Origin: Candidatus Lloydbacteria bacterium RIFCSPHIGHO2_02_FULL_50_18 | GTDB lineage: Bacteria; Patescibacteriota; Minisyncoccia; Phycocordibacterales; UBA6899 | Reading direction: 5' to 3' | Assembly (NCBI GenBank): GCA_001821395.1 | Contig: MHLM01000012.1 | Span: 64,001 to 128,000, forward strand | Length of the DNA stretch: 64,000 nucleotides | In this document: positions 32,553 to 56,897 of the stretch, piece by piece | Position numbering within the stretch: the first letter of the stretch is position 1 | How the letters are laid out: each line of letters begins with the position of its first letter | Program-made: the position numbers and the translations under genes | Notes under the pieces: model-generated | The model's database searches: none | Seen by the model: only the letters and a program-made list of their open reading frames with translations | Told to the model about the DNA's origin: nothing

Positions 32553-32935
32553 CATATCGCGGGACGGCGCCTCACTTTTCATGCGCAGTTCTCTCTCGAT
32601 ATGAACTTCGGATAATTGGGTGCCCCATCATTTAATATCCGCTTAACGTACAAATGTGGAAAAAGCTGTGGATAAGCAGTGAATAAGGCGGATCGCTAAG
32701 AGAGATTGACTCTCAGCCCACATCTGGTATCCTGTGCAGACGTTGCTTCATGTGAGTTTTTAGGTTTGAGCCATTCAGTCGAAAGTATGGCTTAAAACAA
32801 GGAGGAAAACGAGCAGTGCACGTGGAATAAAGTTATACGACCATCTCGTATAACCTCTTGTTTTTACAGTATTGGTCATTTCGGTATTATCCGATGTTTC
32901 CAACGCTGAATTATTTAACTAATCAAAAAAGCTTT

Positions 32936-34126
32936 ATGGCAGATTTTGATCGTTCGAAACCGCATGTGAACGTCGGTACCATTGGTCACGTTGACCACGG
33001 AAAAACCACACTCACCGCTGCGATATTACACGTGCTGCACATGGGTGGATTCGAAGTGAAGATGAAGGGAGTCAACGAGATCGACTCTGCTCCTGAGGAG
33101 CGCGAGCGCGGTATCACCATCGCCCTTTCGCACAATGAGTACTCGACTGCAACTCGCCACTACGCACATATCGATGCGCCGGGCCATGCAGACTATATTA
33201 AGAACATGATCACCGGTGCCGCTCAGATGGACGGTGCGATCATCGTGGTTGCGGCAACCGACGGCGTTATGCCTCAGACCCGCGAGCATGTCCTTCTTGC
33301 AAAGCAGGTTGGTGTGCCAAAGATCATCGTCTTCTTGAATAAAGTAGACATGGTTGATGACCAGGACTTGGTTGAGCTCGTTGAGGAAGAGGTTCGTGAA
33401 TTGCTCACCAAGCAGGGATTTGACGGTGCAAACTGCCCCGTTATCCGTGGTTCAGCATTGAAGGCTCTTGAGTCAAAGACCATTGATGATCCTTGGGCTG
33501 TGAAGATCCTTGATCTTGCAAAGGCACTCGATGAGTACATCCCGGTTCCCGTTCGTGAACTCGACAAGCCATTCCTTATGCCCGTTGAAGACGTCTTTTC
33601 TATCGAAGGACGTGGCACGGTCGTTACCGGCCGTATCGAGCGCGGTGTTTGTAAGGTTGGGCAGGAGGTCGAGATCGTTGGTCTCGCAAAGACCGCAAAG
33701 TCGACCATCACCGGTATCGAAATGTTCAACAAGTCCCTCTCAGAAGGACAGGCTGGAGACAACGCCGGCATCCTTATTCGCGGCATCAAGAAAGAAGATG
33801 TTACCCGCGGACAGGTTTTGGCCGCAACCGGTACTGTTACCCCACACACTGACTTTGAGTCAGAAGTCTATATCCTTTCCAAGGAGGAGGGTGGACGACA
33901 CACACCGTTCTTCTCAGGCTATAAGCCACAATTCTATATCCGTACTACTGACGTGACCGGAGAGGTGACGCTCGCAGAGGGTGTCGAAATGGTCATGCCG
34001 GGAGACACGGTGACCTTCAAGGTGAAGCTCATCGCGCCTGTCGCGCTTGAGGCACAAATGCACTTTGCTATCCGCGAGGGTGGCAGGACCGTCGGTGCTG
34101 GTGTTATTACCAAGATCGTTGCATAA
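32936..34126 (+). CDS. tuf: elongation factor Tu
   Basis: [32 protein letters not shown] motifs; start [10 protein letters not shown] inside ORF 32858. Confidence 0.95.
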
Positions 34127-34164: not shown

Positions 34165-34527
34165 ATGACTACAGGAACGGAACACACAAAGAAAGCCGCA
34201 AGTGCAAAGACGAAAGAGGTAGTCTCGAAGCTGCGCATCCGCGTACGCGCATATGAGTACAAGATCCTCGACGCATCGGTGCGTCAGATCATGGATACGG
34301 CATTGCGCTATGATGCAAAGCTTGTCGGGCCGATCCCTCTTCCGACTCAGATCACGAAGTACACGGTCAATCGTTCAGCGTTCATCTATAAGGATGCTCG
34401 TGAGCAGTTCGAGATGCGCGTCCACAAGCGCTTGATCGACATCATGAACCCGACACCAAAGGTGATCGAGGCGCTGACTAACCTTACACTTCCTTCAGGC
34501 GTCAATATCGACGTGAAGATGATGTAA
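34165..34527 (+). CDS. rpsJ: 30S ribosomal protein S10
   Basis: LRIRVRAYEYKILD...GPIPLPT...RLIDI. Confidence 0.9.
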   Translation: MTTGTEHTKKAASAKTKEVVSKLRIRVRAYEYKILDASVRQIMDTALRYDAKLVGPIPLPTQITKYTVNRSAFIYKDAREQFEMRVHKRLIDIMNPTPKVIEALTNLTLPSGVNIDVKMM

Positions 34528-34557
34528 TTTGAGCGCGAGACTTTGTTATCTTCGCTA

Positions 34558-34640
34558 TAAACCCCGCTCACCGTATATGAATACGGCTCGGGTGGTTCGC
34601 AGCTCGATGCCTCGTCTCGCATCTCAAATTTCAACATCTT
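34558..34640 (+). repeat. ~85-nt conserved intergenic element (copy D), between rpsJ and rplC; homologous to 37468..37545
   Basis: About 75% identity to copy C with a compensatory change in the hairpin ccgtatATGAatacgg vs tcatatACGAatatgc. Confidence 0.6.
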
Positions 34641-36587: not shown

Positions 36588-37433
36588 ATGAAAACATTCA
36601 AACCATTAACGCCTAGTCTGCGTAACACCGTCCTCACTCCCTATAAGGAGCTCCTCTCCGGCGATTCGAAAGCAATCCCGAAGAGTCTTACGAAAGGAAA
36701 GCGAAAGACCGGTGGCCGCAATAACCAGGGTCGCATCACCATGCGGCACATTGGCGGAGGCAACAAGAACCTGAAGCGCGATGTCGACTTCAAATACAAG
36801 AAGCGTGACGTCTTGGGTCGCGTCGAAGCGGTCCAGTACGATCCCTTGCGCACCGCATTCATCGCCCTCGTTGTCTACAAGGACGGAGAGCGCGTGTATG
36901 TCGTCGCACCGAAGGGGATGAAGAAGGGAGACACGATGATCACGAGTGAGAAGGCCGCCCCTACGGTAGGGAACCGACTTCCGCTCAAGAAGATCGCCGT
37001 CGGTACCTTCGTGTACAACGTTGAGGTCCAGCCCGATGGAGGAGCAAAGCTTGCTCGCTCTGCCGGAAACTTCATCGAAGTCATCGCCAACGATATGGGC
37101 TACGCATTCTTGAAGATGCCGTCATCCGAGGTCCGCAAGGTCCCCGAGAATTGTTGGGCATCGATCGGAGGAGCTTCGAACGATCAGCACAAGCTCCGCA
37201 AGGAGGGAAAGGCCGGTCGTAACCGCTGGAAGGGTATCCGACCACACGTGCGCGGTTCAGCCATGAACGCCGTCGACCATCCTCATGGAGGTGGAGAAGG
37301 CCGCATGGGTCGCGGTATGCGACGCCAGAAGTCACGCACCGGTAAGTTCATCGGCAAGGGACAGAAGACCAGATCGCCGAAGAAGTATTCGAACGTGTTC
37401 ATTGTCTCTCGCCGAAAGGTGGGCAAGAAGTAA
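36588..37433 (+). CDS. rplB: 50S ribosomal protein L2
   Basis: HPHGGGEGR motif, 281 aa. Confidence 0.95.
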   Translation: MKTFKPLTPSLRNTVLTPYKELLSGDSKAIPKSLTKGKRKTGGRNNQGRITMRHIGGGNKNLKRDVDFKYKKRDVLGRVEAVQYDPLRTAFIALVVYKDGERVYVVAPKGMKKGDTMITSEKAAPTVGNRLPLKKIAVGTFVYNVEVQPDGGAKLARSAGNFIEVIANDMGYAFLKMPSSEVRKVPENCWASIGGASNDQHKLRKEGKAGRNRWKGIRPHVRGSAMNAVDHPHGGGEGRMGRGMRRQKSRTGKFIGKGQKTRSPKKYSNVFIVSRRKVGKK

Positions 37434-37467
37434 AAATTTTCGCGCATTGCTTTGTTGTCATCGTCGC

Positions 37468-37545
37468 GAACCCCGCTCGTCATATACGAATATGCCTCGG
37501 GAGGTATCGCAACTCGACGCCTCGCACTGCATCGAAAATATTTAC
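37468..37545 (+). repeat. conserved intergenic element (copy C), downstream of rplB; also shares gcattgcttt module with the 45.6/49.6-kb elements
   Basis: Alignment to 34558..34640; followed by terminator 37570..37591. Confidence 0.6.
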
Positions 37546-37569
37546 TTCTTTCTAAGATTGAAGGAAAAC

Positions 37570-37591
37570 AAAACCGCTTACTAAGCGGTTT
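37570..37591 (+). terminator. rho-independent terminator after rplB
   Basis: aaaccgcttactaagcggttttgttg. Confidence 0.7.
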
Positions 37592-37672
37592 TGTTGTATA
37601 CAAGCACTTATGTGTCAAAAGTTTTTATACATAAGAAAATTGACATTCTTATGTATGAGGATATAATACTTC

Positions 37673-38760
37673 AATGAGTAAAAAACCAGCTATTGTCGAA
37701 CCCCTCAAATTAGATGGCTTAGGGCTAGACTACAACAGGTTTGCAGAAGAACTTTCAACCGCCGAATATGCGCTCGGGTTAATTGAGGGTATGCAAAAAA
37801 ACTACTAAACCCAAATCTTTTGATTAGTCCCCTAACCGCCAAGGAAGCAGCTGCGAGTTCTAAGATAGAAGGAACACAAAGTGATGTGTCCGATGTATTT
37901 ATGTTTGAGGCGGGTGGGGAAACTAAACATGCAGATACACGTGAGGTTGTGAATTACCGTCGAGCAATGCGTTTGGCCATGACGGAGATTAAAAAAGGAA
38001 GAGAGGTAAGCAGTCATCTGGTAGAGACCCTTCACGGAGTATTATTGAAAGATGTCCGTCATATTGGCAATCTTGGAAAATATAGAGAAGGACAAGTTTG
38101 GATTGCCGAACGATCTGGTGATCCAATTGAGAAAGCGATATACGTCCCACCCGAGGCAATACACGTGCGCGGGTTGGCTCAGAATTTGATTGAATACATA
38201 AACGTGGGGAAGGAGAATGCATTGATTAAGGCAGGCGTTGCACACTATCAGTTTGAGGCAACTCATCCATTTGATGATGGGAATGGGAGAATTGGGAGAC
38301 TCCTTATTCCAATTGTGTTACACAGACATCAGAGATTGTCATCACCAATTCTTTATCTTAGCGGCTACTTTGATGATCATCGAGATGAATATATCGCGAG
38401 GCTCCATGCATTGGATGATGGTGCTGATATGGAAGATTGGTTAAAATTTTTTTACATTCGGTTAGCCAGCAGCTCGGTCAAACACAAAAAATAATTGAAG
38501 GAATTTATGAACTCTATGACCAGCTTAGACTTGAAAATAGGGGGATAAAATCACCATTCGTTATTCCCCTCATTGATATGATGTTTGAGATGCCAATTTT
38601 TACGTTGGCCATGGTGCAAGAATCAACTAAATGCTCGAGCTATATAACTGCATCGACACTAATTAAGAGAATGATTGATGCGGGTCATGTTGAAAATGTA
38701 GGAAAGGTTGGAAGGGAAAAGCTTTATGAATTCCGCTCGCTTGTAAAAGTATTAAAATAA
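37673..38760 (+). pseudogene. Fic/Doc family protein (HPFxDGNGR) disrupted by two -1 frameshifts at 7-nt homopolymers
   Basis: Three consecutive frames encode Fic_N (..GMQKK|LLNPNLLISPLTAKEAAASSKIEGTQ), core with HPFDDGNGRIGRLL, and C-terminal wHTH-like part; breaks at A7 (~37795) and T7 (~38455); restoring 8 nt at each gives one ~360-aa ORF. Confidence 0.7.
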
Positions 38761-38888
38761 TCAATGAATCTGTCCTGGTAAGGAAATTAATCACAATTGA
38801 TTTCACAAAATTTTTACTTCCTTTACTTCCCACTGAAACCCATGTAGTTTGACGGGGGATTGATACGTACTTTAACAGGAGAAATCCG

Positions 38889-39546
38889 ATGAGTATTGGT
38901 GAAAATGTTTTTGAGCGTACGGGTCCTTCGACCATGTCGGCGCGCGGTTTCTACGGCGCACTGGGATTGATCGTCGCGTTTGGGCTCTGGTTATCAAGTC
39001 TCGTGGCGGCAGAGTTCACTGCATGGCAGCCGTCACTCATGGTGATACTGCTTGTCGGGCTCGGCATCCCGATCATCGGCATTGTGATCGCTGCGAAGTC
39101 TGAGACTCCAGCGATCTCATTCCTCGGCTACCTCATGGTGGCGGTGCCATTCGGGATGCTCCTGGGGCCAACGCTCAATCAGTATTCGCCCGAGGTCGTG
39201 CAAAAGGCGATGTTCTACACCGCGGCGACCACGCTCGTCATGGGTGCGGCGGGCGTGCTCTATCCGAATTTCTTTGCGCGGATCGGCGGCGCACTCTTCA
39301 TGGCTCATGGCACTCATCGGGCTTGTCGTTGTGCGCGTCATCGGCATCTTTATTCCCGCATTGGGCAACATGTCGGCCATCGACTATATTTCTGCGGGTA
39401 TCTTCTCGCTTTACATCGGCTACGATATGTACCGTGCAAGTGCAATGCCGCACACGCTCGACAATGCCGTTGACGCCGCATTGTCCCTGTATCTCGACAT
39501 CATCAATTTGTTCCTCAGTTTGCTCCGGATATTCGGCAAGAATTGA
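38889..39546 (+). pseudogene. Bax-inhibitor-1/YccA family membrane protein disrupted by 7-bp tandem duplication
   Basis: tcatggc|tcatggc at ~39298..39311; removing one copy joins ORFs 38889..39473 and 39244..39546 into ...GGALFMALIGLVVVRVIGIFIP...LYLDIINLFLSLLRIFG. Confidence 0.65.
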
Positions 39547-39698
39547 TCGTTTCGTTTTAAACTCGGCATACGCCGGGTTTTTTGTTGCATGTATTTGTCA
39601 CGATGGTTGATCTCAGCCTCGCGAGCTGGTGGTGTTGCGTCTCACAGCCACTTGTGTTTGTATGGTCACAGCGTTCATTTGATCACAAAGGAGAATTC

Positions 39699-40199
39699 AT
39701 GTTGCTCGACAAATTGGTTCCCGTTCTCGGTACGCCCATTCGCATTGGTGTACTTATGGAAAGCAGTGGCGATGGAACAAAAATACCATTTTTCCTCATC
39801 GATTTTGGTAAAGAGTATCCATCGATCGAACCGTTGATCGCCAGAAATGGCACAATGACGCTCGACATCGTACCGGATGGTGACCACTGTACTTTCCACG
39901 TCACTGGAGATCGGATGGTCAGCGAGCTCACTCCCGAGCTTTTGAATCGCGCGCTCGCCGCACCGCCTGAGACGAGGAACCAAGTATTGTTCGGGCAGGG
40001 AAGGCCCGAATTCGCTTCAAGTGTTACGCTTTCAGGCGAATCATGCGAGCAATTCATCGAAGCATTCACTGCAGGCGGCGGGTTCTGGCTTCTCGTCACG
40101 CTCAGTCAGTCCGGAACTCGATCCGTGATCGCTCCAGACGGTGAGATCATTCGTACTGAGTCGTGTTCGCGCTTGGAACTTGAGTATCTCTTGGGTTAA
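39699..40199 (+). CDS. hypothetical protein
   Basis: Internal Met MLLDKLV of ORF 39582; followed by terminator 40210..40247. Confidence 0.4.
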   Translation: MLLDKLVPVLGTPIRIGVLMESSGDGTKIPFFLIDFGKEYPSIEPLIARNGTMTLDIVPDGDHCTFHVTGDRMVSELTPELLNRALAAPPETRNQVLFGQGRPEFASSVTLSGESCEQFIEAFTAGGGFWLLVTLSQSGTRSVIAPDGEIIRTESCSRLELEYLLG

Positions 40200-40209
40200 G
40201 GTTTGCCGT

Positions 40210-40247
40210 GCAACACCCCGACGTGTCGGGGTGTTTTTGTTTTTTCG
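40210..40247 (+). terminator. rho-independent terminator
   Basis: caacaccccgacgtgtcggggtgtttttgtttttt. Confidence 0.75.
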
Positions 40248-40274
40248 GTAAATAAAAACTCCGCAGATGCGGAG

Positions 40275-40634
40275 TCAGTCGGGCTTGAAAAGTTTTGCAA
40301 GAAGTTCTTGCGGGAGAATGTTCGGATCGAGCGGCAATGCATCCAATTCGTCAGCCGACCCTATCGTCTCTCGCGACTCAGCGATCTCGAGTGTGCGGAC
40401 GAGGAGCAATATCAATGCAGTGATATATTGCCGGAATTCATCAGCGGTCTGCGTAGCTACCTCTTCGTGTGCACTTTTTGCACGCTCCCCGATCAGTTCA
40501 ATGAGTCCTCCAAGAGAGGGATTAATTTCTTTTAATCGCAGTACGTGAGTCGTAATGTGTGCAATGAGGGCCGGCCGTAATTGTGGAAGTTCACGGCTTG
40601 CCGCCAAAACATCCAAGGGCATGACATGTTTCAT
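40275..40634 (-). CDS. hypothetical protein
   Basis: 119 aa; its own terminator hairpin (aactccgcagatgcggagt) on minus strand at 40255..40275. Confidence 0.4.
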   Translation of the reverse strand: MKHVMPLDVLAASRELPQLRPALIAHITTHVLRLKEINPSLGGLIELIGERAKSAHEEVATQTADEFRQYITALILLLVRTLEIAESRETIGSADELDALPLDPNILPQELLAKLFKPD

Positions 40635-40795
40635 GGATACTCCATGTGGTGAACAGTGCGCTTACTCTGTTGTACGCGCGAGCGTATGTTGTGTCAAGAA
40701 ATAGCGACTGCATCCCATTTTGTTGTTGAATGGAATGTTTCATCCCGCCCCGTCTGCTCGCTTTACATCTTTTATTGTTGCGTTAGAGTAAGCAT

Positions 40796-41116
40796 ATGTT
40801 TAACTTCAATAAAAAACCGATCCCTGAAGATCGAATAATGACGTGGGAGGAGGAGGCGACCTTCCCCATTGAGCTCCAAGAAGCAGCTCTCTCGAGTTTG
40901 ATAGAAGTCGCACAGCGGCAAGGAGCATCTTCGGTCGATCTTGAAAAACAATTGAATACGATTGAGATCAAGAGACGGGTCATTCTCTGGCTCGGAACTT
41001 TTCCTGATATAGCAGAGAAGAATGCTGCGATCGAACGGGCAAATGCGGAGGGTTTGCCGCCGGAGATATTCACTACTCCGGAGTTTGTTGCTCCGGAAGT
41101 TGAGACGCTCCAATAG
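40796..41116 (+). CDS. hypothetical protein
   Basis: 106 aa; terminator 41165..41197. Confidence 0.4.
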   Translation: MFNFNKKPIPEDRIMTWEEEATFPIELQEAALSSLIEVAQRQGASSVDLEKQLNTIEIKRRVILWLGTFPDIAEKNAAIERANAEGLPPEIFTTPEFVAPEVETLQ

Positions 41117-41206
41117 GCGGTGTGCCGTGGTCTTTTGACCTTGCCACCCCTGGTCTTTGAACGAAAAACCCGCTCATTAGTAGCGGGTTTTTGTAACAGA
41201 GCTCCC

Positions 41207-41272
41207 CTATTTCTTTCCTCCCTTCTTCGGCTTCTTTGCCTCCTTCTTGATGTTGTTGTCTCCGCGTCCCAT
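41207..41272 (-). CDS. putative 21-aa lysine-rich micro-protein (MGRGDNNIKKEAKKPKKGGKK)
   Basis: ATG..TAG small ORF immediately followed on minus strand by palindromic terminator hairpin 41165..41197; paralog of 41362..41427. Confidence 0.3.
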   Translation of the reverse strand: MGRGDNNIKKEAKKPKKGGKK

Positions 41273-41361
41273 GTTGTATGCGTCTATTGATAATATTGCA
41301 CAATTATATCATGACACAGCAAAACACCACCGCACATTTGTGCGGTGGTGTTTTGCTTGTT

Positions 41362-41427
41362 GTTATTTCACTACGACCTTCTTTGGCTTTTTCTTATTTT
41401 TCTGCTGTGCATTGTTTCCTTTTGCCA
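41362..41427 (-). CDS. putative 21-aa lysine-rich micro-protein (MAKGNNAQQKNKKKPKKVVVK)
   Basis: Same length and pattern as 41207..41272; followed by palindromic terminator 41318..41353. Confidence 0.3.
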
Positions 41428-42028
41428 TGACGTATTGCTTATACTGCTAATGAACGAACGTATCTTCAGTGTAGCAGATTTTCGTCATGACATGAAAATG
41501 CCCGGTTGTACCCATGTTGATAGTGGTCATACGGACCGACCCATGCTTATTTGCAAAAACAGGGGATAACTTTCACTACGGAAGGCGCTTTGAGGCTATA
41601 ATGGTGACAACATTTTCGCACATTACGCGCTGGGTGCTTTTGGAGTAAAAAGCGAGCAGGACGTAGTGTGAGAAGATCCACAAAATGGATCCTTATGCTA
41701 TGTTCCAGCGAATGGACATATCGTTGCGGAGAAACAAAAACTTCGTTAACGGTAGAGGTTAGTCGTATATCTTTCTTATCAACATCGTGGATACGCGTTC
41801 GTTGCCTACAGCAAGGAATGTGAAAAGTGATGAAGAGAAGTACTCTGGAGCCAATTTTTATGAATCCGTTGTCGAGTGCTAAAAAGCAAAAGTAACGATC
41901 GCCAATCGTCCTCCCGCATAAAAAAGTATCTGTAGTACTTTTTATGCCAGAGTGCATGCTCATCGAAAGATATCAACGAATTGTCATAGCGCCGCGTTCA
42001 GGCAAGAACGCGGCGTTATGTATTGAGG

Positions 42029-42146
42029 ATTGAGAACATAGCAAATTTCTTTGTTGAAACATGAACATGCAAGCAAGCCGTACTCCGAGTACGGCTTGCT
42101 TGCATGTTCATGTTTCGTCTCGAACTTTGCATATGTTCTCAATCCT
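42029..42146. repeat. ~118-bp near-palindrome with 25-bp perfect inner arms (ATGAACATGCAAGCAAGCCGTACTC|GGAGTACGGCTTGCTTGCATGTTCAT)
   Basis: Inner 52-bp perfect palindrome 42061..42112 flanked by imperfect inverted arms GGATTGAGAACAT...ATGTTCTCAATCC. Confidence 0.75.
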
Positions 42147-42231
42147 AAAGGATGAATGTCCAATCGCTACTGTTGCGATTTTTTTATTATCTGGCAGTCT
42201 GAGTACAGAATGGTCTTCGAGGGAGGCAGGA

Positions 42232-42918
42232 ATGGTTCAAGCATCAGTCAACAAAGAGCAACTAGATAAGCTTCGAAATACTTATTGCGATGCAGCGCAG
42301 TACTTGGGTGTCCCACGCACAAGTGCAGAACGATGTTTCACGAAACTCGCGCAATACTATGCTGAACCGCATCGGCGCTATCATACGCTGGCTCATCTGC
42401 ACCAGTGCATGGTTGAGTTTGCGGATGTAGTGTGGCACAGTCAGGATCCTGCGCTCATTGTCATGGCTATTTTTTACCATGATATTACGTACGACGTTCA
42501 TCGCAACGATAACGAAGCGAAGAGTGCGTTGTATTGGAAATTCATTGCCCGCCATGTACTCGAAGTGAAGAACGAAGGATTCATCGCCGAGGTCGCCCGA
42601 TTGATCGAACTTAGCGGCGAACATCGTACGGACCCTGTCACTGATCCTGATGCCGCGCTCTTCCTCGACGTCGACATGTCGATTCTAGGAGCTGACGCAC
42701 CGGAGTACGACGCATATGCGGCCGCAGTGCGACAGGAGTATGCGCACTGCAGTGACGATGAATGGGCGTTTGGTCGCGTTGCGAAGTTCCTTGATCCGAC
42801 CTTGTGTGAGGACAGAATATTTCTCACTGATATCTTTCGTCAAAAATATGAAGAAAATGCGCGCGCAAACCTGATGGAAGAGCGTTGCCGCTATCAAAAA
42901 AACCTACCGCTCGCATGA
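42232..42918 (+). CDS. HD-domain metal-dependent phosphohydrolase
   Basis: RYHTLAHLH and FYHDITYD (H..H / HD) motifs; start at MVQASVNK downstream of the palindrome; terminator overlaps stop (42903..42930). Confidence 0.55.
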   Translation: MVQASVNKEQLDKLRNTYCDAAQYLGVPRTSAERCFTKLAQYYAEPHRRYHTLAHLHQCMVEFADVVWHSQDPALIVMAIFYHDITYDVHRNDNEAKSALYWKFIARHVLEVKNEGFIAEVARLIELSGEHRTDPVTDPDAALFLDVDMSILGADAPEYDAYAAAVRQEYAHCSDDEWAFGRVAKFLDPTLCEDRIFLTDIFRQKYEENARANLMEERCRYQKNLPLA

Positions 42919-43017
42919 GCGGTTTTTTCTTGACAAAGAGTATTTGTTGTGGAGAATCAAGAACGGCAGTCCCAATAGGGAAAGCCGTTCTTTTACAACC
43001 AACCGAAAGGATAACTC

Positions 43018-43866
43018 ATGAGCGAGATAGCCGAAAAAGTAAACCCATCGACCGATGGGCAGATGAAAGACCTCACCAGCGTTCTGGTGACCGCCATGCC
43101 CGATCACGAAAAATTCCCACGGGAACAAATCGAGTATTGGATGAAAAACAAGCGCTTGCTCGCGGCAAAGGTGCGCGCAGTGCTTGAGGGGGCCCCACGT
43201 GGCCTTGGGCAAACAACGCAAGAAGTGCTGCAATCCTGGGAGCGATTTTATCGCGAGATACTCAAAATAAAAGTCGACTTCTCGGATATCGATACTCCGC
43301 CACGTTTTAGTGAATTTAAGGCCATTATTCCCGTGATCTCATCTATTTCCGCAGAAGAAATTGTCGGTTTACTCACGAAAAATTTCAATCATGAATTTAG
43401 TTTGAGAGACTTTCAGTGCAACTTAGATGAGCTCTCGCACTTGCGTCCGGAGGGGCACTATGCGGTTTTGCACCGAGGTACTCGAATGCCCGATCTCGAT
43501 ATGCAGATCACCAGGCAGCGAGCTACTGAGGGTGTGGTCGCGAGGTACACTTGCGTACATCCTCCCGTCGATGCTTCTTCATTTATGAATCCAAGGGAGT
43601 ACATCCTTTTTGCGGCGTTCAACGTCTGGATGACATCTGGTCGTCACTCGTCACCATGGTTCGACTACGACATTGCTGGCACTAATTTTATTGGCGAGAG
43701 AGCGCTCCCTGGAACCGCGTTCCCACAGATGGATGCTTTTGATCGACCACTGGCCGCGTGTTGCCACTCTAGCAATAACCATGAGTGCCACATTGAACAC
43801 CCTTGTGGCTTTGAAAATTCCTACGGGCGACTTGTGAAAGTACTTTCTTCCTTGCGCATCGCATAA
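43018..43866 (+). CDS. hypothetical protein; shares a local motif with ORF 50374..51195 (possible paralog)
   Basis: RPEGHYAVLHRGTRMPD vs RPRCTYVVVHRGGMEPD; terminator 43871..43906. Confidence 0.5.
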   Translation: MSEIAEKVNPSTDGQMKDLTSVLVTAMPDHEKFPREQIEYWMKNKRLLAAKVRAVLEGAPRGLGQTTQEVLQSWERFYREILKIKVDFSDIDTPPRFSEFKAIIPVISSISAEEIVGLLTKNFNHEFSLRDFQCNLDELSHLRPEGHYAVLHRGTRMPDLDMQITRQRATEGVVARYTCVHPPVDASSFMNPREYILFAAFNVWMTSGRHSSPWFDYDIAGTNFIGERALPGTAFPQMDAFDRPLAACCHSSNNHECHIEHPCGFENSYGRLVKVLSSLRIA

Positions 43867-43899
43867 CGTGTTTATCACCACCGAGAAATCGGTGGTTTT

Positions 43900-44970
43900 T
43901 TATATGATGAGCATTCCGTCGCCGAATGAGTAGAAGCGGAATTTTTCCCTTATGGCGATGTCGTAGAGCGCGAGGATGTCGCGCTTCGCTCTTTTGTGTT
44001 TGAGGAGTGCGTCGACCAAGAGCATGAGTGATGAGCGAGGGACGTGGAAGTTCGTAATAAGCCCATCTGCAATCTTGAATTCGTACGGCGGGTAGATAAA
44101 TATATTCGTAGGCTTAGAACATTGCTCAACACTCCAAGGTTCCACCTTGGAGTGTTGGATTGCAGCGGATTCGAGGGTACGCATGGCGGTAGTGCCGACG
44201 GGGATGATGGGAATACCCGCCGCTTTTGCACTATTTATTTTTTTTGCGCTTTCCTTTGTGATATCGAGATACTCCGCAAAAAGTTTTTTACTTTTGAAAT
44301 TTTGTTCATCAATCGGCGCAAAGGTACCCGCACCTACATGAAGCGTGACCTCCGTACGCGTGATGTGTTCACGTTTCATTTTTTCGAGTAAGCGATCGGT
44401 GAAATGGAGCGACGCCGTTGGTGCTGCAATTGACGCGGGATATTTCGCGAGAATACTTTGGTATTTTTCACGCAATGTGTGCTCGGACATCGTATTGCCC
44501 TTGATATATGGGGGTATTGGCGTCACACCCTCTTTCTCGAGCAAACTCCAAAGGCTGCCTTTGGATACACTGGGATTGAAAAAGAAAAATTGCTCTTCTT
44601 GTCTTTCGACCTCAAGGTGCGCCCCTGACTTAAAGAAGAGTTTGGCACCGGGAAGGATCTTGCGGTCGACCACTCCTTTAATAGAGATGTCGCCGGGACG
44701 GAATTCATTCATCATGAGAAGCACCTCGATCTTGCCGCCCGTTTCTTTGGAAAGCCACAATCGGGCAGGAACGACCTTTGTATCATTAAAGACAAGCAGG
44801 CTGGGTTTGGGGAGATATTGGTCAATATTCCGGAAAACATCAAAATGCACCTTATCAGTTTTCGTATCGTAGACGAACAATCGAGCGGAATCTCGCGGAG
44901 AAGCGGGCTCATTGGCGATAAGCCCCTCAGGGAGGTGGTAGTTATAATCATCGAGAGAGATCATGTGCAC
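43900..44970 (-). CDS. queA: S-adenosylmethionine:tRNA ribosyltransferase-isomerase
   Basis: LPEGLIANEPASPRDSARL, PIPPYI, AAPTASLHFT, HVGAGTF, TNFHVPRSSL, YSFGDGMLI motifs. Confidence 0.9.
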   Translation of the reverse strand: MHMISLDDYNYHLPEGLIANEPASPRDSARLFVYDTKTDKVHFDVFRNIDQYLPKPSLLVFNDTKVVPARLWLSKETGGKIEVLLMMNEFRPGDISIKGVVDRKILPGAKLFFKSGAHLEVERQEEQFFFFNPSVSKGSLWSLLEKEGVTPIPPYIKGNTMSEHTLREKYQSILAKYPASIAAPTASLHFTDRLLEKMKREHITRTEVTLHVGAGTFAPIDEQNFKSKKLFAEYLDITKESAKKINSAKAAGIPIIPVGTTAMRTLESAAIQHSKVEPWSVEQCSKPTNIFIYPPYEFKIADGLITNFHVPRSSLMLLVDALLKHKRAKRDILALYDIAIREKFRFYSFGDGMLII

Positions 44971-45035
44971 ATGCTATCAGGTGAAGCAATATGGGCAAGC
45001 TTTTCTATGTTTAGCAACGTATTTTCGACTTTTTT

Positions 45036-45056
45036 TGTCAAGGTTTAACCTTGACA
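45036..45056. repeat. 21-bp perfect palindrome TGTCAAGGTTtAACCTTGACA (second copy of 24159..24179)
   Basis: Same arms and same gtattttc...ttttttt 5' flank as copy 1. Confidence 0.6.
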
Positions 45057-45179
45057 ATTTTAAGTGGTGCGTTTGCGGCTACGATAATATTCCACAGATA
45101 ATCCACAGAGTTATCAACAGCAAAATGTAATAATTATGGCAAAAAATAACCCCAACCCTTCGGTCGGGGTTGGGGTAGG

Positions 45180-45419
45180 TCAGTCGACCTCTGTGATGGT
45201 AAACTTTTCGCTGCAGGAGTAGAGGAAGCCCTCCTCGAGTCCCCAACAGAAAAAGAACATCCCGTCGCCCTCCTTGGGGGGCACCCCATCCTTATTCGAA
45301 ACGGTCGTTACTCCACCTTCGCGAGTGACTTTGACGTCAACGTAGGACCTGGTGGAACTTAAATCTTCCATAAATTCTGCGTGCTCATCTTCGGTGAGTA
45401 TCGCTGTGGCTATTTTCAT
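45180..45419 (-). CDS. hypothetical small protein
   Basis: 79-aa ORF upstream of queA on same strand. Confidence 0.4.
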   Translation of the reverse strand: MKIATAILTEDEHAEFMEDLSSTRSYVDVKVTREGGVTTVSNKDGVPPKEGDGMFFFCWGLEEGFLYSCSEKFTITEVD

Positions 45420-45589
45420 TGTTGCTCCTTCGGTTTGGTTTTTGAGTCTGACATGACATTAGCACGAAAAATATTTATGTCAATAATTTGATATTCCTAT
45501 ATTTTATAACATATTTTGACTTAATTCGAACGCCACACCTAGGAAGTGAGGGAAATAGGTCTTTTGGGAGACTTCACGGGCTTGAAATA

Positions 45590-45720
45590 CGCACCTGGGA
45601 GCGAGGTATTGCTTTTTGAGGGGCTACGGACCGCGGCGGCGGGAGTTTGAGGAAAAAGTCAGCAGACTTTTATCCGTGCCCTCAAAAAGCAATGCCGAGC
45701 GTATACATTGACTTCTTTGG
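45590..45720. repeat. palindromic intergenic repeat element (copy A) upstream of rpsS; related to 49590..49760
   Basis: Internal inverted arms gcgaggtattgctttttgagggg / ccctcaaaaagcaatgccgagcg; aligns to reverse complement of copy B. Confidence 0.65.
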
Positions 45721-45856
45721 GCTGTTTAAGTAGTATCTAGCACAAGGTATTTCAAATAGTTTCACTCTACGCCGTGGGAGGATCAGGGGCGTTGGGAAAT
45801 CTATATCGAAAAATCGCCAAATCGCCCAAAAGGCTTAGAAAAACTTTTATAAACAT

Positions 45857-46201
45857 ATGACAAGATCACTAAAAAAGGGACCATACGTGTACGAGAAATT
45901 GCTCAAGAAGATCGAGGGCAAGAAGCCGGATGTTGCCGGTGTAATTAAGACCTGGGCGCGTGCGTCGCAGATCTCACCTGAGATGGTGGGGCATACCTTC
46001 GGTGTGCACAATGGCAAGGACTTCATTGAGGTAAAGGTCAGCGAGGAGATGGTTGGACATCGTCTCGGTGAATTCTCAGGAACCCGCAAATTCTATCGTC
46101 ACGGTGGAAAGATGCAAAAGGACCTTGAGGCTAAACAGAAGGAAGCCGAGATCTCTGCAGCAAAGGCCGCAAAGGGAGCTGATGCCGCTAAGAAAAAATA
46201 A
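45857..46201 (+). CDS. rpsS: 30S ribosomal protein S19 with Lys/Ala-rich C-terminal tail
   Basis: KKGPYV...[24 protein letters not shown]. Confidence 0.9.
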
Positions 46202-48971: not shown

Positions 48972-49583
48972 ATGAACGTCCCAACAATAAAAGAAAAGAT
49001 AAAGTCCGCATATCCAAAGCTGAAAGAGAAGCATGGATATAAGAACGTCATGCAGGCACCTAAGGTGGAGAAGGTCATCATTTCCGTGGGCACCGGTAAG
49101 ATGTCCCGCAATGACAAGAAGAAGAATGAGTTCGTCGCGAGCCGGCTTGGTATGATCACCGGACAGAAGGCGTCTGCACGAAAGGCAAAACAATCGATCG
49201 CTTCGTTCAAGCTTCGTGAGGGTGATGTCATCGGACAGATGGTCACGATGCGCGGGAGCAAAATGATGGGTTTCCTCGACAAGCTTGTGAACGTGGCTAT
49301 CCCGCGTACGCGCGACTTCCGAGGATTCCGTGCCGCCTCGATCGATGCAATGGGGAATTTCACCCTTGGTATCAAGGAGCACACGATCTTCCCTGAGACT
49401 GCAGATGAAGACCTGAAAGACGTCTTCAGCCTCGCACTCACTGTCGTTCTTTCAACGAGGAACAAGGAGGAGTCCATTGATTTCTTGGAGCACCTTGGTT
49501 TCCCGTTCCGCGAAACTGCGAACGAGGGAAAGAAAAAGAAAGAGAAGAAGGTTGACGCCCCAAGTAAGAAGTGGAAGAAGTAA
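48972..49583 (+). CDS. rplE: 50S ribosomal protein L5 with Lys-rich C-terminal tail
   Basis: L5 family core; C-terminal EGKKKKEKKVDAPSKKWKK. Confidence 0.9.
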   Translation: MNVPTIKEKIKSAYPKLKEKHGYKNVMQAPKVEKVIISVGTGKMSRNDKKKNEFVASRLGMITGQKASARKAKQSIASFKLREGDVIGQMVTMRGSKMMGFLDKLVNVAIPRTRDFRGFRAASIDAMGNFTLGIKEHTIFPETADEDLKDVFSLALTVVLSTRNKEESIDFLEHLGFPFRETANEGKKKKEKKVDAPSKKWKK

Positions 49584-49939: not shown

Positions 49940-50308
49940 ATGCAGATCCGCTTTCGGGTTCGCGAACTCGCTTTGGCAATTCGGGAATTTCTCGTCGGTG
50001 TCTTTGTCTTCTTCCGGCGGTCAGTGAAAAGAAGGGATGAAGTACGATATTGCTTCATGTGCCAAGAGTACGGCCATCCGCTTACTAAAGTATCGTTCAT
50101 GATCCGCACAGAAGCGCGGAGGGGGGCAAAGAAGGAGGCGCCATTCTCGGTCATGGAACTCCACGTGTGCAGTATGCATCATCCTGACAAGGACGTCGTC
50201 GGGGCAGACCTGTCCGAGGAAACACGATCATTTCTTCGAAACAATGATGCTGCCGCAGCGTGTGTCTACTATTACCATGATCCCGATCATGTTTTCCGCC
50301 TCGGATAA
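49940..50308 (+). CDS. hypothetical protein
   Basis: 122 aa; its 3' end plus terminator is duplicated at 51215..51288. Confidence 0.4.
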   Translation: MQIRFRVRELALAIREFLVGVFVFFRRSVKRRDEVRYCFMCQEYGHPLTKVSFMIRTEARRGAKKEAPFSVMELHVCSMHHPDKDVVGADLSEETRSFLRNNDAAAACVYYYHDPDHVFRLG

Positions 50309-50373
50309 GAGGTGGTTTTTTTATACTCCGTACGTTATCCAAAGGTAATTGGACAAAGTAGCAAAAATGCAAT

Positions 50374-51195
50374 ATGGTCAGTACGGAAAAGCTAGCCCCG
50401 GGCTCCATCGTGGGAATATTCTTTGAGAAGGAACAGTCCATGCAAACAGATAAGACAGACTCGGCTTCTGCAACGCCGGAACAACTCGCGATGCTTACTG
50501 GCGAGTTCGCTCTGGCTCTGGCTAAGGCAAAGCCATCCGCCGCTCTCATGCAGCATCTGCTCCGAAGCAGGGTGGCAACACGGAAGATGATCATCGCGGC
50601 CCTATCGACGCAGGGAAGAATCAGTCACACGATTGATCCTCGCCTCGTGCAGTGTCAAAAGCTATGGGAGAAACTCGGAGTGGTGCTCGACTGCATGGAC
50701 AATCTTGTCATGCCGGAAATCCCATCCGGTTGGCGCGGTATCGCCATCATCCCACCACTCACAAATGAAGCACTCCTCGCTCTTTGCAAAAAGCACTTTC
50801 CGATATGGTCGAAACGCGATGGCCTCGACAATATCTTGAGAGAACAAAATCGACCACGATGCACCTACGTCGTCGTCCATCGTGGTGGTATGGAGCCGGA
50901 TAAAGAGCATCGTAATAAGAGTCATGATGATGCGGTCAATGAAGGTTTGTATTTTTTGACGCTGAAGGAGCGTATCTGCATCGAGCTTCTTCATTTCATA
51001 AAAACAGGCAAGCATTTTGATGTTAAGGGGACCATGACAGTCACATCCTCGCTGACGATGGGTGGCGATGCGTTTAATGTGTATTGGAGTTCGCATATTC
51101 AGACGTTCATTGTGGATGGTTGCCGTACGGTGACTTCGTACTCGACGAATGGGCTTCGTCAGGCCGTTTTCTTTGGATTGAAGCCTTACCGTTGA
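50374..51195 (+). CDS. hypothetical protein (possible paralog of 43018..43866)
   Basis: 273 aa; shared ..VVHRGG.EPD.. motif. Confidence 0.5.
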   Translation: MVSTEKLAPGSIVGIFFEKEQSMQTDKTDSASATPEQLAMLTGEFALALAKAKPSAALMQHLLRSRVATRKMIIAALSTQGRISHTIDPRLVQCQKLWEKLGVVLDCMDNLVMPEIPSGWRGIAIIPPLTNEALLALCKKHFPIWSKRDGLDNILREQNRPRCTYVVVHRGGMEPDKEHRNKSHDDAVNEGLYFLTLKERICIELLHFIKTGKHFDVKGTMTVTSSLTMGGDAFNVYWSSHIQTFIVDGCRTVTSYSTNGLRQAVFFGLKPYR

Positions 51196-51214
51196 TTGCT
51201 GAGCCGACACTTGT

Positions 51215-51288
51215 GCCGCAGCGTGTGTCTACTATTATCATGATCCCGATCATGTTTTCCGCCTCGGTTAAGAGGCGGTTTTTTTATA
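51215..51288 (+). repeat. non-coding duplicate (~96% identical) of 50252..50330 (3' end of ORF 49940 + terminator)
   Basis: gccgcagcgtgtgtctactatta(c/t)catgatcccgatcatgttttccgcctcgg(a/t)taagagg(t/c)ggttttttta; no start codon in copy 2. Confidence 0.75.
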
Positions 51289-51317
51289 AGACAAATTTTT
51301 GACTTTCCTGAAAGTTA

Positions 51318-52367
51318 ATGTATGGTGAGCACTGGTTTTGTACTTTTATATCTAACCTGAGGAAAGACATGGACATTAATACGTCTGACCCCGGTGACAA
51401 TGGACGACGGGGTATCGATAGGGGTTTGAGCGACAGGCGCGAGTATGACCTTGCCAGGACCCTCATTGGAACGTTGCTGTTCGTTAAGTTATATCGAGCT
51501 GCAGGCGCTCTCAAGTTCCTGAAGGCGCTCAAGGTTCTTGGTCCTCTCATGATGGTGGTCTCCGGAATTTTCACGGGAGAGATCTATTCTCTCGTCATGA
51601 AAACCTCCCTTGTTGTGGGGCTGCTATTTTCTCTTGCGGTGCATGAGCTCGGTCACTATGTTGCGACGAAGCGATGCGGCCTCCGCGCGGCGTGGTGGCT
51701 CTTCATTCCATTCGTCGGAGCGTGGATGGAAGCGCCGGATTTTCGTTCCCGCAATGACGAGGCGTGCATCGCTTTTGGTGGTCCTTTCATCGGAGGGATA
51801 TTTTCTCTGATATTGTTCTGTGCATGGTTGGTACTACCGCTGTCCAATGAATGGGGAAATATTCTCTTCACCATAGCTTTCCTTTCGACGATGTTGAATC
51901 TCTTCAATATGATCCCGCTTTCGCCGCTTGATGGCGGAAGGATCACCGAAGGGGTGAGTATCTGGTTTCGCGTCGCAGGGTTCGTTGTATTGATCACGCT
52001 TTCTCTCTATACCGCTCAAGCATCGATGGCTCTTGTGTGGTTGCTGGTGATGAGTGAAGTTCGGATGTCCGCACGATTGAGGTTTGTCACGGCGGCGCTC
52101 ATGCTGATCCTTATGGCGGTACTCATTATACTGGGGTATCACGGGCCTTCCGCTCTTGAAGATTGGTGCTATTTTGCGGTCGGCGTATGGCTGCTCTCCG
52201 CTTTTTATAAGCGTTGGAAGAATCCGCCCCCTCGGCATGATCATCGCAATGTCAGATTGACTCCAGCGGAGCGAAAAAAATGGAAACGTTCGTACTGTGG
52301 GCTCCTTCTTTTCCTCATCGTATTGTTTGCCGCATTTTTCCCTCACATGAGCAAACTTGCTTTTTGA
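51318..52367 (+). CDS. M50-like membrane zinc metalloprotease
   Basis: AVHELGHYVA HExxH and NLFNMIPLSPLDGG motifs; multi-TM; terminator 52371..52400. Confidence 0.65.
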   Translation: MYGEHWFCTFISNLRKDMDINTSDPGDNGRRGIDRGLSDRREYDLARTLIGTLLFVKLYRAAGALKFLKALKVLGPLMMVVSGIFTGEIYSLVMKTSLVVGLLFSLAVHELGHYVATKRCGLRAAWWLFIPFVGAWMEAPDFRSRNDEACIAFGGPFIGGIFSLILFCAWLVLPLSNEWGNILFTIAFLSTMLNLFNMIPLSPLDGGRITEGVSIWFRVAGFVVLITLSLYTAQASMALVWLLVMSEVRMSARLRFVTAALMLILMAVLIILGYHGPSALEDWCYFAVGVWLLSAFYKRWKNPPPRHDHRNVRLTPAERKKWKRSYCGLLLFLIVLFAAFFPHMSKLAF

Positions 52368-52474
52368 GTTGAATAACTCGCCGATAATCTCGGCGAGTTT
52401 TTTGTGCATTGTTGAATTGCATACTGTTGAGAGCAGTACTATACTTTATGTACATTAATATATATCCTCTCGTC

Positions 52475-55219: not shown

Positions 55220-55230
55220 CATTGAAAACC

Positions 55231-55959
55231 ATGAACAAAGATATAAAAGATATAATAATCCTTCTTACTGCACTCCTGCTCTCTGCCATCGTCATTGCTG
55301 GAATATATTACAGAGCAAAAAGAATACCCGAAGAAACTCCAGGAACCTTGAAAAGATATCAGCTCCAAGGAACACCTGATCATCCGGCGATGTTTTATCC
55401 TACCGATCTGACTAAAGATATAAACCTATTGGGCTCATCTCATGATGTTTTCATAGGAAAAGTCATTTCTCAAACTGGTGACAAAGAAACTCAGATTGGA
55501 CCACGCACACAATATTCGGTGGAAGTTATTGATAATATTAAGGGTAAGTTAAAAGATATTGTAACCATTGACATGCTGGGTGGTTATGACAAAGATGGCA
55601 AGTTGGTAGTAATCGAAGAAAATGATTCAACTGATTTTCTCCTTAAACCAGGCTCAACTTACCTCTTTGCTACCCGTTATAACGAAGAAGAGGATTGGTA
55701 TACTCTAATTTCTCACCCGAATGCTCGAAAAATTATAAGTACAGATAACACAAAAAATGAAGCCGCTCTCATGGCTCTCATCGACCAAGACGAAAAGGTA
55801 AAATCCTTTGAATCCGCATACGCCCATGAAGTTCTCCTCGACGCCGACATCGCCCACGGAAATACTCGTAACTCCTTCCAGTCTCTCGCACCAGCGGAAA
55901 AAGCCGCCGCCCAATCCCGCGCTGATGCGGCAAGAGCCTTGCTTGAGGCAATGCAGTAA
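55231..55959 (+). CDS. N-terminally membrane-anchored protein, partner of the beta-helix/metzincin gene
   Basis: MNKDIKDIIILLTALLLSAIVIAGIYY TM anchor then soluble ~200-aa domain; start overlaps upstream gene stop; 5' region duplicated at 56196. Confidence 0.5.
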   Translation: MNKDIKDIIILLTALLLSAIVIAGIYYRAKRIPEETPGTLKRYQLQGTPDHPAMFYPTDLTKDINLLGSSHDVFIGKVISQTGDKETQIGPRTQYSVEVIDNIKGKLKDIVTIDMLGGYDKDGKLVVIEENDSTDFLLKPGSTYLFATRYNEEEDWYTLISHPNARKIISTDNTKNEAALMALIDQDEKVKSFESAYAHEVLLDADIAHGNTRNSFQSLAPAEKAAAQSRADAARALLEAMQ

Positions 55960-56002
55960 GATGCTTCTGCGGGGGTATACTTATTTGTGAACACAACGGC
56001 TC

Positions 56003-56185
56003 ATGAACAAAAAAATACTAAAATACACACTTGTCATCTTTGGGATATTCCTGCTCGGAGGCGTCGCGTTGTCGATCCATTTGTTCATCCAAAGTAAATT
56101 TGGTGTTTACGCTCCTCTAGATCGCGGATTTCCGGTAAGGACATTCCATCCAACGGGTATTAGTATTGATCAACCCAGCATTTGA
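56003..56185 (+). CDS. small single-TM protein (possibly degenerate copy of same family)
   Basis: MNKKILKYTLVIFGIFLLGGVALSI N-terminus echoes MNKDIKDIIILL... Confidence 0.3.
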   Translation: MNKKILKYTLVIFGIFLLGGVALSIHLFIQSKFGVYAPLDRGFPVRTFHPTGISIDQPSI

Positions 56186-56195
56186 ATGGATACCT

Positions 56196-56380
56196 ATCAT
56201 AATTGTGGGATATAACATTGAAAACTATGAACAAAGACATAAAAGATATAATGATTCTTCTTATTGCACTTCTACTCTCCATCGTCGTCATTGCTGGAAT
56301 ATATTACGGAATAAAAAGTACTCAAGGAACTGTAGTTTCAACATATTCTCATCAGGGAACGCCTGAAAATCCGGCAATGT
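56196..56380 (+). repeat. ~190-bp duplicate (~85% identical) of 55203..55400 (junction: ...HNCGI stop + 5' part of membrane-anchor gene), encoding a truncated 47-aa copy
   Basis: cataattgtgggatataacattgaaaac(c/t)atgaacaaaga(t/c)ataaaagatataat... shared. Confidence 0.7.
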
Positions 56381-56897
56381 AGAATTTCATAGAAAACAAT
56401 AATTATGGAAGCTCTAAAAAATGAATTAAAGAAAACAATGGTCGTATGGAGAGATGCGTTAATCTGAGAAAAAAGATTTGCTAATCTGAAAAAGCTATTC
56501 CTCGTTATTTTGGGTGTGGCTGTGTTTATCATTATCTTTCCGATGCCAACGAGGTGCAGGATAGAAAATCATGGAGCATATAGGCCGGCTAACGATTTAG
56601 TAATTGGTGCATACGTGGTTCGTGATTGTTACCCACCAAACCGTGCTGAATTTTGGCAGAACCCACAATTGAGTTTTGAATTTCGCTGGTTATTTGTTCC
56701 CACGTTAGACAGTATAACTGGTCATCGAGGTGTCAGTGTAATAAATATCCATCTATAAGGTAATCCCACATTCGCGTAAGCAATAAAAACTGCTACAAGG
56801 CGGGTCTTTGTTTTTTGTCTGGGCTATTCCTCGCGAGCACTAAGGTGTTCGCATATTGCTGGTCTGCGATAATCTAGTCTTATATAATAGACTCATA

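Follow-up and report, generated by a model that had tools for sequence, protein, structure and literature searches.

Two adjacent genes of a Candidatus Lloydbacteria genome, a SoFic-type Fic gene and a BI-1 gene, as very probable recent pseudogenes

Introduction

The closest described counterpart of the gene considered here is SoFic of Shewanella oneidensis (structures 3EQX, 3ZCN and 9TC4), which is built from an N-terminal helix with the Fic_N region, a Fic core and, at its C terminus, a winged helix. SoFic is a dimer held together by its N-terminal helix, the limits of which are L28-L50; it AMPylates EF-Tu and also binds DNA, namely the first 100 bp upstream of its start codon (bioRxiv 10.64898/2026.07.09.737422). 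The subject of this report is a Fic gene of the same architecture, together with the BI-1 gene that follows it, in a 64,000-nucleotide stretch of Candidatus Lloydbacteria bacterium RIFCSPHIGHO2_02_FULL_50_18 (contig MHLM01000012.1 of assembly GCA_001821395.1, positions 64,001 to 128,000). This whole stretch is called the window, and all positions below are counted from its first letter. The window Fic shares with SoFic the active-site pattern HxFx(D/E)GNGRxxR and the N-terminal inhibitory motif SxxxEG, and a palindrome over its promoter fits the reported binding of SoFic to its own promoter. It differs in being about 30% identical, in belonging to a bacterium of the Candidate Phyla Radiation (CPR), and in being interrupted by two frameshifts, because of which this Fic, known here from sequence, cannot make the protein.

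A homologue from Escherichia coli, EcSofic, belongs to the same Fic family, is toxic when expressed and has been described as an abortive-infection effector; it has a 47-residue antitoxin, AS1, encoded downstream (PMC12249575), whereas neither the window gene nor its counterpart in four relatives has a conserved small open reading frame (ORF) on either side. CccR of Yersinia pseudotuberculosis, as the SoFic preprint describes it, is a Fic protein with a winged helix-turn-helix (wHTH) that binds its own promoter and autoregulates its transcription. An 11-nucleotide inverted repeat upstream of the window Fic would be the type of site used by such a dimer, to judge from its conservation and from a symmetric compensatory change within it. 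SoFIC is reported to rank second among defence families by prevalence in groundwater bacterial metagenome-assembled genomes (MAGs), and a dynamic gain and loss of defence systems is proposed for the CPR (PMC12259885). AMPylation of a target and protection from phage are on record only for the homologues of S. oneidensis and E. coli and for variants from groundwater.

The second gene belongs to the BI-1/TMBIM/YccA family of seven-TM proteins (PF01027). The structural reference of that family is BsYetJ. When repaired, the window gene gives a 216-residue protein that matches the whole family model and keeps the C-terminal GYD...LDI aspartates, but as it stands its last 77 residues are out of frame. 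The analysis below leads to the conclusion that both genes are very probably recently inactivated pseudogenes, fixed in the sampled aquifer population of Candidatus Lloydbacteria (Parcubacteria, CPR).

Results

The Fic gene runs on the forward strand from an ATG at 37674 to 38760, and three successive frames are needed to read the whole of it. Its parts are as follows.

37674..37808 (+): Fic segment 1, with 42 native codons and then an out-of-frame N-Y-stop; the region aligned with the N-terminal dimerisation helix of SoFic
37795..37801 (+): A7 run, lesion 1, one base short; CAA AAA AAC in the zero frame, an in-phase A_AAA_AAC heptamer
37802..38494 (+): Fic segment 2, with SSKIEG (residues 62-67) and the core HPFDDGNGRIGR (residues 198-209), ending out of frame in YIRLASSSVKHKK and a stop
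38447..38453 (+): T7 run, lesion 2, one base short; TTT TTT TAC in the zero frame, with no in-phase X_XXY_YYZ heptamer
38454..38760 (+): Fic segment 3, holding the final helix of the Fic domain and, at the C terminus, a SoFic-like winged-helix domain

The frame is broken by stops at 37806-37808 and 38492-38494, and since the gene is spread over three frames with stops, the locus is to be counted as a pseudogene of the SoFic family and not as a functional member. No mononucleotide runs in the gene are longer than the two in which these lesions lie. With one A and one T put back, a frame of 362 codons opens that has no further stop and codes for a protein with Fic_N and Fic domains, alignable over its entire length with intact homologues of 361-362 residues. 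The initial annotation had already read the gene in three frames, one base short at an A7 and a T7; its position for the first run (37795) is correct, and the second, which it placed at about 38455, lies exactly at 38447-38453. A tblastn search of the window with the repaired protein places residues 1-42 in frame 3, residues 39-260 in frame 2 and residues 257-362 in frame 1.

The repaired protein was aligned with 33 close homologues, every one of them a single ORF (33/33), of 361-372 residues (all but two have 360-365). The alignment is gapless at both junctions and recovers invariant columns there, these being Q41, K42, K43 and L44, and W256 and F259. The junction peptides of the repaired frames are GMQKKLLNPNLL, DWLKFFLHSVSQQ and GGALFMALIGLVVV, together with FMALIGLVVV for the BI-1 gene described below. 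The sole start codons available to segments 2 and 3 are TTG, and no ribosome-binding site can be recognised in front of them.

The family identity of the repaired protein is clear from several sources. Pfam finds Fic_N at residues 25-103 (E 8e-24) and Fic at residues 113-215 (E 3e-17), and the PADLOC model for SoFic (PDLC03963) is matched with E 4.8e-95 over profile positions 13-358 of 361. The closest solved structures are the three SoFic entries named above (E 4e-30, residues 32-358), and the alignment of these chains as far as residue 358 bears out the C-terminal wHTH-like domain that had been proposed from the sequence. The active-site motif HxFx(D/E)GNGRxxR is present as HPFDDGNGRIGR, and all 34 sequences agree at these columns. 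The (S/T)xxxE(G/N) motif, the inhibitory one that defines class II, is present as SSKIEG, in which S62, S63, I65, E66 and G67 are invariant, and it aligns with the inhibitory region of SoFic. On this sequence evidence the ancestral protein is assigned as a SoFic-type, class II, self-inhibited Fic protein. Because the inhibitory helix is part of the Fic protein, a separate antitoxin of the class I type is not expected. In the five genomes compared (the window and four relatives) no conserved small antitoxin-like ORF was found beside the Fic cassette, and the 128-nucleotide spacer before the BI-1 gene holds no plausible small gene. The upstream antitoxin partner that had been suggested as worth looking for can be set aside, the Fic being class II.

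The BI-1 gene is interrupted by a lesion of a different kind.

38889..39546 (+): BI-1/YccA-family (Bax1-I) gene, with 139 native codons and then a 55-residue out-of-frame tail ending at 39473
39298..39311 (+): tandem duplication of TCATGGC, lesion 3, with copies at 39298-39304 and 39305-39311

The reading frame does not continue through the C-terminal helices, being lost after residue 139 of 216, and the native last 77 codons can be read in the +1 frame up to 39546. When one heptamer is deleted the gene codes for a BI-1 protein of 216 residues that matches the Bax1-I (PF01027) profile over positions 13-207 of 207 (E 1.2e-31). With this repaired protein, tblastn places residues 1-139 in frame 3 of the window and residues 154-216 in frame 1. 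Syntenic intact orthologues, likewise of 216 residues and 84-88% identical, read TTCATGGCACTCATC at this point, that is, with a single copy of the heptamer; the initial annotation was thus right in ascribing the split to a duplication. It had also proposed that relatives be checked for intact versions, and these were found for both genes, as BI-1 orthologues at the identity just given and as single-ORF Fic homologues that are at most 74% identical. A BI-1 stump of 194 residues is present verbatim in a public protein collection. The part out of frame includes the conserved GYD and LDI aspartates, and the present product, without its last helices and these aspartates, would be non-functional.

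Nine separately assembled contigs, from nine sample or run accessions, were found to be 99.8-100% identical to the window. Their assembly sources are ANAN16 scaffolds, two k141 assemblies, three Logan contigs and two JGI contigs. Both A7 and T7 are present in 9/9, and the duplication is present in all six of the contigs that extend to 39298, so that several assembly sources agree base for base at the three sites.

ENA contigs with A7 and T7: ERZ28563803, ERZ27254754, ERZ28563591, ERZ4903125
Logan assembly contigs with A7 and T7: SRR2090155, SRR2090157, SRR3989344
JGI contigs with A7 and T7: 3300002502, 3300002529

The middle Fic fragment, of 224 residues, is present verbatim in the public protein collection; this fragment and the BI-1 stump are each on 7-10 contigs. 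Fragment ORFs are deposited at NCBI under OGZ06300.1 and OGZ09371.1, annotated as Candidatus Lloydbacteria MAG proteins. No intact Fic or BI-1 allele of the same species was found among 5.8 billion proteins, the best full-length matches there being 74% identical for Fic and 88% identical for BI-1. About 30 other A/T runs of at least seven bases in the window leave the reading frames unbroken, and in a spot check of ten other window ORFs, eight gave near-full-length Pfam domain matches and two gave none. Because the contigs agree, no intact allele was found and the other runs are harmless, an error of assembly or of homopolymer length is very unlikely. Genuine decay had been favoured from the start, and the finding of the same A7, T7 and duplication in separately assembled contigs upholds that preference.

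Three further runs (T7 at 14009, A7 at 42896 and A6 at 12076) were considered as frameshifts and rejected, being ordinary gene ends or overlapping neighbour genes. Homopolymer counts in the window drop sharply at a length of eight, with 39 A6, 20 A7 and 1 A8, and 40 T6, 12 T7, 3 T8 and 1 T9. One of the contigs, ERZ4903125 k141_2337240 (equivalent to window 37665-38560), keeps both frameshifts and carries the changes A37870C and G37872C, which alter two invariant residues of the Fic inhibitory motif (E66D and G67A). The variant may reflect neutral drift in a gene already dead, one multi-nucleotide event, or a mistake in a short contig of low coverage.

The age of the lesions was approached through substitution rates. 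For BI-1, the ratio of nonsynonymous to synonymous rates (dN/dS) between the window and the orthologues is 0.04-0.09, and the 77 codons past the duplication give 0.03-0.08; between two intact orthologues the ratio is 0.07. As the downstream value equals that of the intact pair, the out-of-frame part has not yet drifted. For Fic, dN/dS is not computable because synonymous sites are saturated at 70-74% identity; the repaired protein has 2-3 unique changes at otherwise invariant columns, compared with a median of 1 and a maximum of 3 for its clade. Judged by these sequence comparisons, both inactivations are recent relative to species divergence; the perfect operator palindrome, the full-consensus promoter and the undamaged catalytic and inhibitory motifs of the Fic gene point the same way.

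At the DNA level, the four relatives read CAAAAGAAACT, CAGAAAAAACT or CAGAAGAAGTT at Fic site 1 and AAATTCTTCCTT, AAATTTTATCTC or AAGTTCTTTCTT at site 2. None of them has a long run at either site, and the A7 and T7 tracts are therefore lineage-specific. The relatives' CAGAAAAAACT minus its G gives exactly the observed CAAAAAAACT. The tracts may thus have been created by the loss of an interrupting base (CAGAAAAAA minus G giving CAAAAAAA) and not by slippage in A8 or T8. To say that the gene is broken at homopolymers, as the initial annotation did, describes the present sequence well, but it does not establish the mutational mechanism. In addition, window-specific changes at otherwise invariant Fic columns (L37I, S40M and Q45L) all lie within nine codons around lesion 1. 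This cluster at residues 37-45 (window 37782-37810), in which S40M takes three base changes, hints at a local mutational event more complex than one slippage.

Upstream of the Fic gene there is a well-preserved regulatory region.

37627..37667 (+): Fic promoter and operator, with a -35 box TTGACA at 37640-37645 and a -10 box TATAAT at 37662-37667, matching the consensus at 12/12 positions
37627-37637 and 37646-37656: perfect 11-nucleotide inverted repeat around the -35 box, ATACATAAGAA and TTCTTATGTAT

The ATG follows the -10 box by 6 nucleotides in the window, and by 6-8 nucleotides across the five genomes. With the start codon so close to the -10 box, the Fic mRNA is probably leaderless. The palindrome and promoter stand upstream of Fic in 5/5 cassettes, that is, in the window and in four Patescibacteria contigs, although the flanks are unrelated. 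The consensus of the repeat is TATATAAGAA / TTCTTATATA; the window copy departs from it by two symmetrically placed changes, which keep it palindromic. This pattern fits a putative autoregulatory operator that travels with the Fic gene. A second, weaker repeat is found further upstream, at 37596-37621. The GC content of the Fic gene is 41%, compared with 49-51% in its flanks in the window, and it is 2-14 GC points below the flanks in all five genomes, each of which has a different neighbourhood. The low GC and the differing neighbourhoods are consistent with horizontal circulation of the cassette. When the genome contigs were scanned with the Fic alignment, the matches listed were mostly homologues of 30-40% identity from many phyla, with both the window's own genome and the close clade absent among them. 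The cassette lies 3.5 kb downstream of tuf (32858-34126), which encodes EF-Tu, the published AMPylation target of SoFic; this proximity is probably a coincidence.

The two genes lie between rplB (36588-37433) and rpsS (45857-46201), and the S10 ribosomal-protein operon is in consequence split by about 8.4 kb. Besides the two genes, the insert (37434-45856) holds several unannotated ORFs, and queA on the opposite strand. Another Lloydbacteria genome, GCA_043719805.1, shares this split and the gene order BI-1, queA, rpsS. In GCA_043720495.1, other cargo comes after rplB, with BI-1 behind it, and the contig does not reach as far as queA and rpsS. Between rplB and BI-1, both relatives hold entirely different genes from those of the window. 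Homology between the window and these relatives ends at 37552-37557, the end of a conserved hairpin, and resumes at 38867, 22 nucleotides before the start of BI-1. Since homology stops and resumes at these points, the Fic cassette is the sole cargo of a hypervariable slot (37558-38866). BI-1 itself, by the same comparison, is assigned as a native, conserved and syntenic gene, not an accessory one. The idea of an accessory island, raised in the initial annotation, therefore survives for the Fic cassette, which is accessory cargo, but not for BI-1. PADLOC and Pfam were also run on the cargo that occupies the same slot in GCA_043719805.1 and GCA_043720495.1, and returned only an XRE-type helix-turn-helix protein; for this reason the slot is not called a defence island.

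Two hairpins lie at the left side of the slot.

37425..37550 (+): imperfect hairpin of 126 nucleotides at the left edge of the slot, overlapping the rplB stop; folding energy -40.5 kcal/mol, z -4.2
37570..37597 (+): terminator-like hairpin AAAACCGCTT-ACTA-AAGCGGTTTT followed by GTTG, at the start of the window-specific insert, as read from the sequence

The core of the first is almost 100% identical in GCA_043719805.1 and GCA_043720495.1, where rplB is 79-87% identical. From its place at the left edge of the slot, it may be an element for RNA processing or attenuation, or a recombination site. An Rfam search with it gave no family, only sub-threshold Trp_leader noise. A paralogue of this hairpin is found at 34516-34640, after the rpsJ stop (72% identical, with the same fold, z -4.1). 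The second hairpin was not flagged by the terminator scan.

Elsewhere in the insert, a perfect palindrome of 61 nucleotides (42056-42116) lies within an inverted repeat of 127 nucleotides (42023-42149) and overlaps the start of the ORF at 42061-42918; window 41548-42150, which includes the palindrome, matches GCA_043719805.1 at 82% identity. The ribosomal cluster seems to have a second break, in which about 7 kb of other ORFs (49940-56800), one of them of 936 residues, separate rplE (48972-49583) from rplF (L6, 58125-58658), where the cluster resumes.

Discussion

Four other explanations have to be weighed against the reading of both genes as recent pseudogenes. The one that survives best, although we consider it quite improbable, is a phase-variable switch, in which slippage of the A and T tracts during replication would leave a toxic and costly defence gene switched on in some cells of the population and off in others. 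In its favour, phase variation is known to target defence genes, promoter and operator are both intact, and the two Fic lesions are in the longest runs of the gene. Against it, A/T tracts of seven are short for efficient slippage; the two would need to be 'on' together; and they are absent from all four relatives examined. A locus of this kind would be expected to vary in tract length, and no polymorphism is seen in 9/9 assemblies. A pattern scan of JGI metagenome contigs that tolerated 6-10 bases at site 1 found one contig, in the A7 form, and no 'on' protein is present in the database. In addition, the neighbouring BI-1 gene is broken by an unrelated mechanism. The initial annotation had offered the switch as one of its options, and with no 'on' allele on record and no such tracts in relatives it is given up here.

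Slightly less probable again is programmed recoding, in which full-length Fic would be made in a trickle, either by -1 frameshifting of the ribosome at both sites or by slipped transcription that adds one A or U, and a toxic effector would so be held to a minimal dose. Poly(A)-tract frameshifts rescued by transcriptional slippage are found in Buchnera and Blochmannia, in tracts that are typically of 9-10 or more bases and conserved across strains. The window resembles these cases in having single-base shortfalls in A/T runs, an otherwise intact gene and a small genome, but its tracts are seven long, are lineage-specific, and are two in one gene, both of which are needed. Site 1 has the in-phase A_AAA_AAC heptamer, whereas site 2 (TTT TTT TAC) has none, and no stimulatory structure was found downstream of either: RNA folding over the 70 nucleotides past each site is no better than in shuffled sequences (z +1.03 and +1.06). 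The same -1 correction would serve at both sites, but two successive events of low efficiency would give a negligible yield, and every homologue at 70-74% identity has an unbroken frame and no such tracts. It is true that the ORF is undamaged but for the two shifts; this is, however, equally expected of a very recent pseudogene, as the dN/dS of BI-1 illustrates, and the 7-bp duplication in BI-1 could not be read through by any slippage mechanism. Were rare -1 slippage nevertheless to occur at both sites, it would supply traces of a toxic effector that AMPylates EF-Tu, a recoding-gated defence gene in a CPR bacterium, the yield of which might rise when phage infection perturbs the fidelity of translation; we give this prospect the same slight chance as recoding itself.

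Lower still in probability is an error of sequencing, assembly or consensus, with the genome truly reading A8, T8 and a single TCATGGC and both genes intact. Undercalled homopolymers are a classic artefact, and A8 is oddly rare beside A7 in the window (20 A7 to 1 A8). Illumina sequencing, however, does not systematically shorten 8-mers, and the agreement of the nine contigs and the undisturbed frames at about 30 other runs of at least seven speak against it. A 7-bp duplication is no homopolymer error, and with nine contigs in agreement this option of the initial annotation is also discarded.

No more probable than such an error is functional fragmentation, in which a piece would be useful alone (for example a winged-helix repressor of 107 residues or a dominant-negative or anti-Fic peptide of 44 residues): the breaks more or less separate SoFic's three described functional modules, and segment 1 keeps a perfect promoter, but break 2, by the SoFic domain limits, is some 20 residues within the Fic domain, the fragments downstream lack credible start signals, split forms have no comparative evidence, and nothing is left in the window for fragments to regulate or antagonise, so that the ORF fragments are rejected as functional modules.

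Several observations weigh against the reading of both genes as pseudogenes fixed in the population. Site 1 is a textbook in-phase -1 slippery heptamer, and the common -1 correction of the two Fic lesions, together with the pristine regulatory region, leaves formal room for rescue by slippage at a low level. The comparison was made at the level of assemblies, below which there is room for minority length variants. The nine contigs come from what we take to be one aquifer site (Rifle), presumably all with Illumina chemistry, and because the population is nearly clonal they count as independent measurements and not as independent evolutionary events. Finally, three lesions in two adjacent genes form a cluster that random decay does not by itself explain, and which may be due to chance; apart from Fic and BI-1, no broken ORF was seen among those checked across this compact 64-kb stretch.

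Conclusions

Taken as two recent pseudogenes, the locus can be given the following history. The Fic gene would have been a self-contained, horizontally circulating cassette of the SoFic type, with a sigma-70 promoter, a palindromic operator at the -35 box and a class II protein of 362 codons. If the intact protein behaved as its homologue SoFic does, its N-terminal helix would mediate dimerisation, its SxxxEG helix would restrain it, and its C-terminal winged helix would repress the promoter of its own gene. Once activated it would AMPylate its target (EF-Tu in the case of SoFic) and halt translation, and so might act in phage defence of the abortive-infection type. The cassette landed between the hairpin on the rplB side and the native BI-1 gene, in the hypervariable slot of the split S10 operon. 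Two independent single-base deletions now stop translation after 44 codons, and again at codon 260, so that the helix for dimerisation, the catalytic core and the domain that binds DNA are parted from one another. What is made at present would be just a peptide of 44 codons with the dimerisation helix; neither the core nor the DNA-binding domain would be produced. In BI-1, the 7-bp tandem duplication swaps the last 77 residues for the 55-residue out-of-frame tail. It is plausible that the loss of a costly and toxic defence gene was neutral or even favoured in a streamlined genome.

This explanation is an ordinary one, and it leaves unchanged what is known of Fic enzymes, of BI-1 proteins and of frameshifting. 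It does bear on annotation. Database entries for the Fic fragments call them hypothetical or Fido-domain proteins, and the BI-1 stump is listed as a protein of its own by JGI and other gene callers; together, these deposited fragments would represent one dead defence gene of the SoFic family and one dead BI-1 gene. For the biology of the organism, the locus would offer a datable snapshot of the turnover of defence genes in a streamlined groundwater CPR genome, and it shows that cargo slots of the hypervariable kind can exist inside a ribosomal-protein operon.

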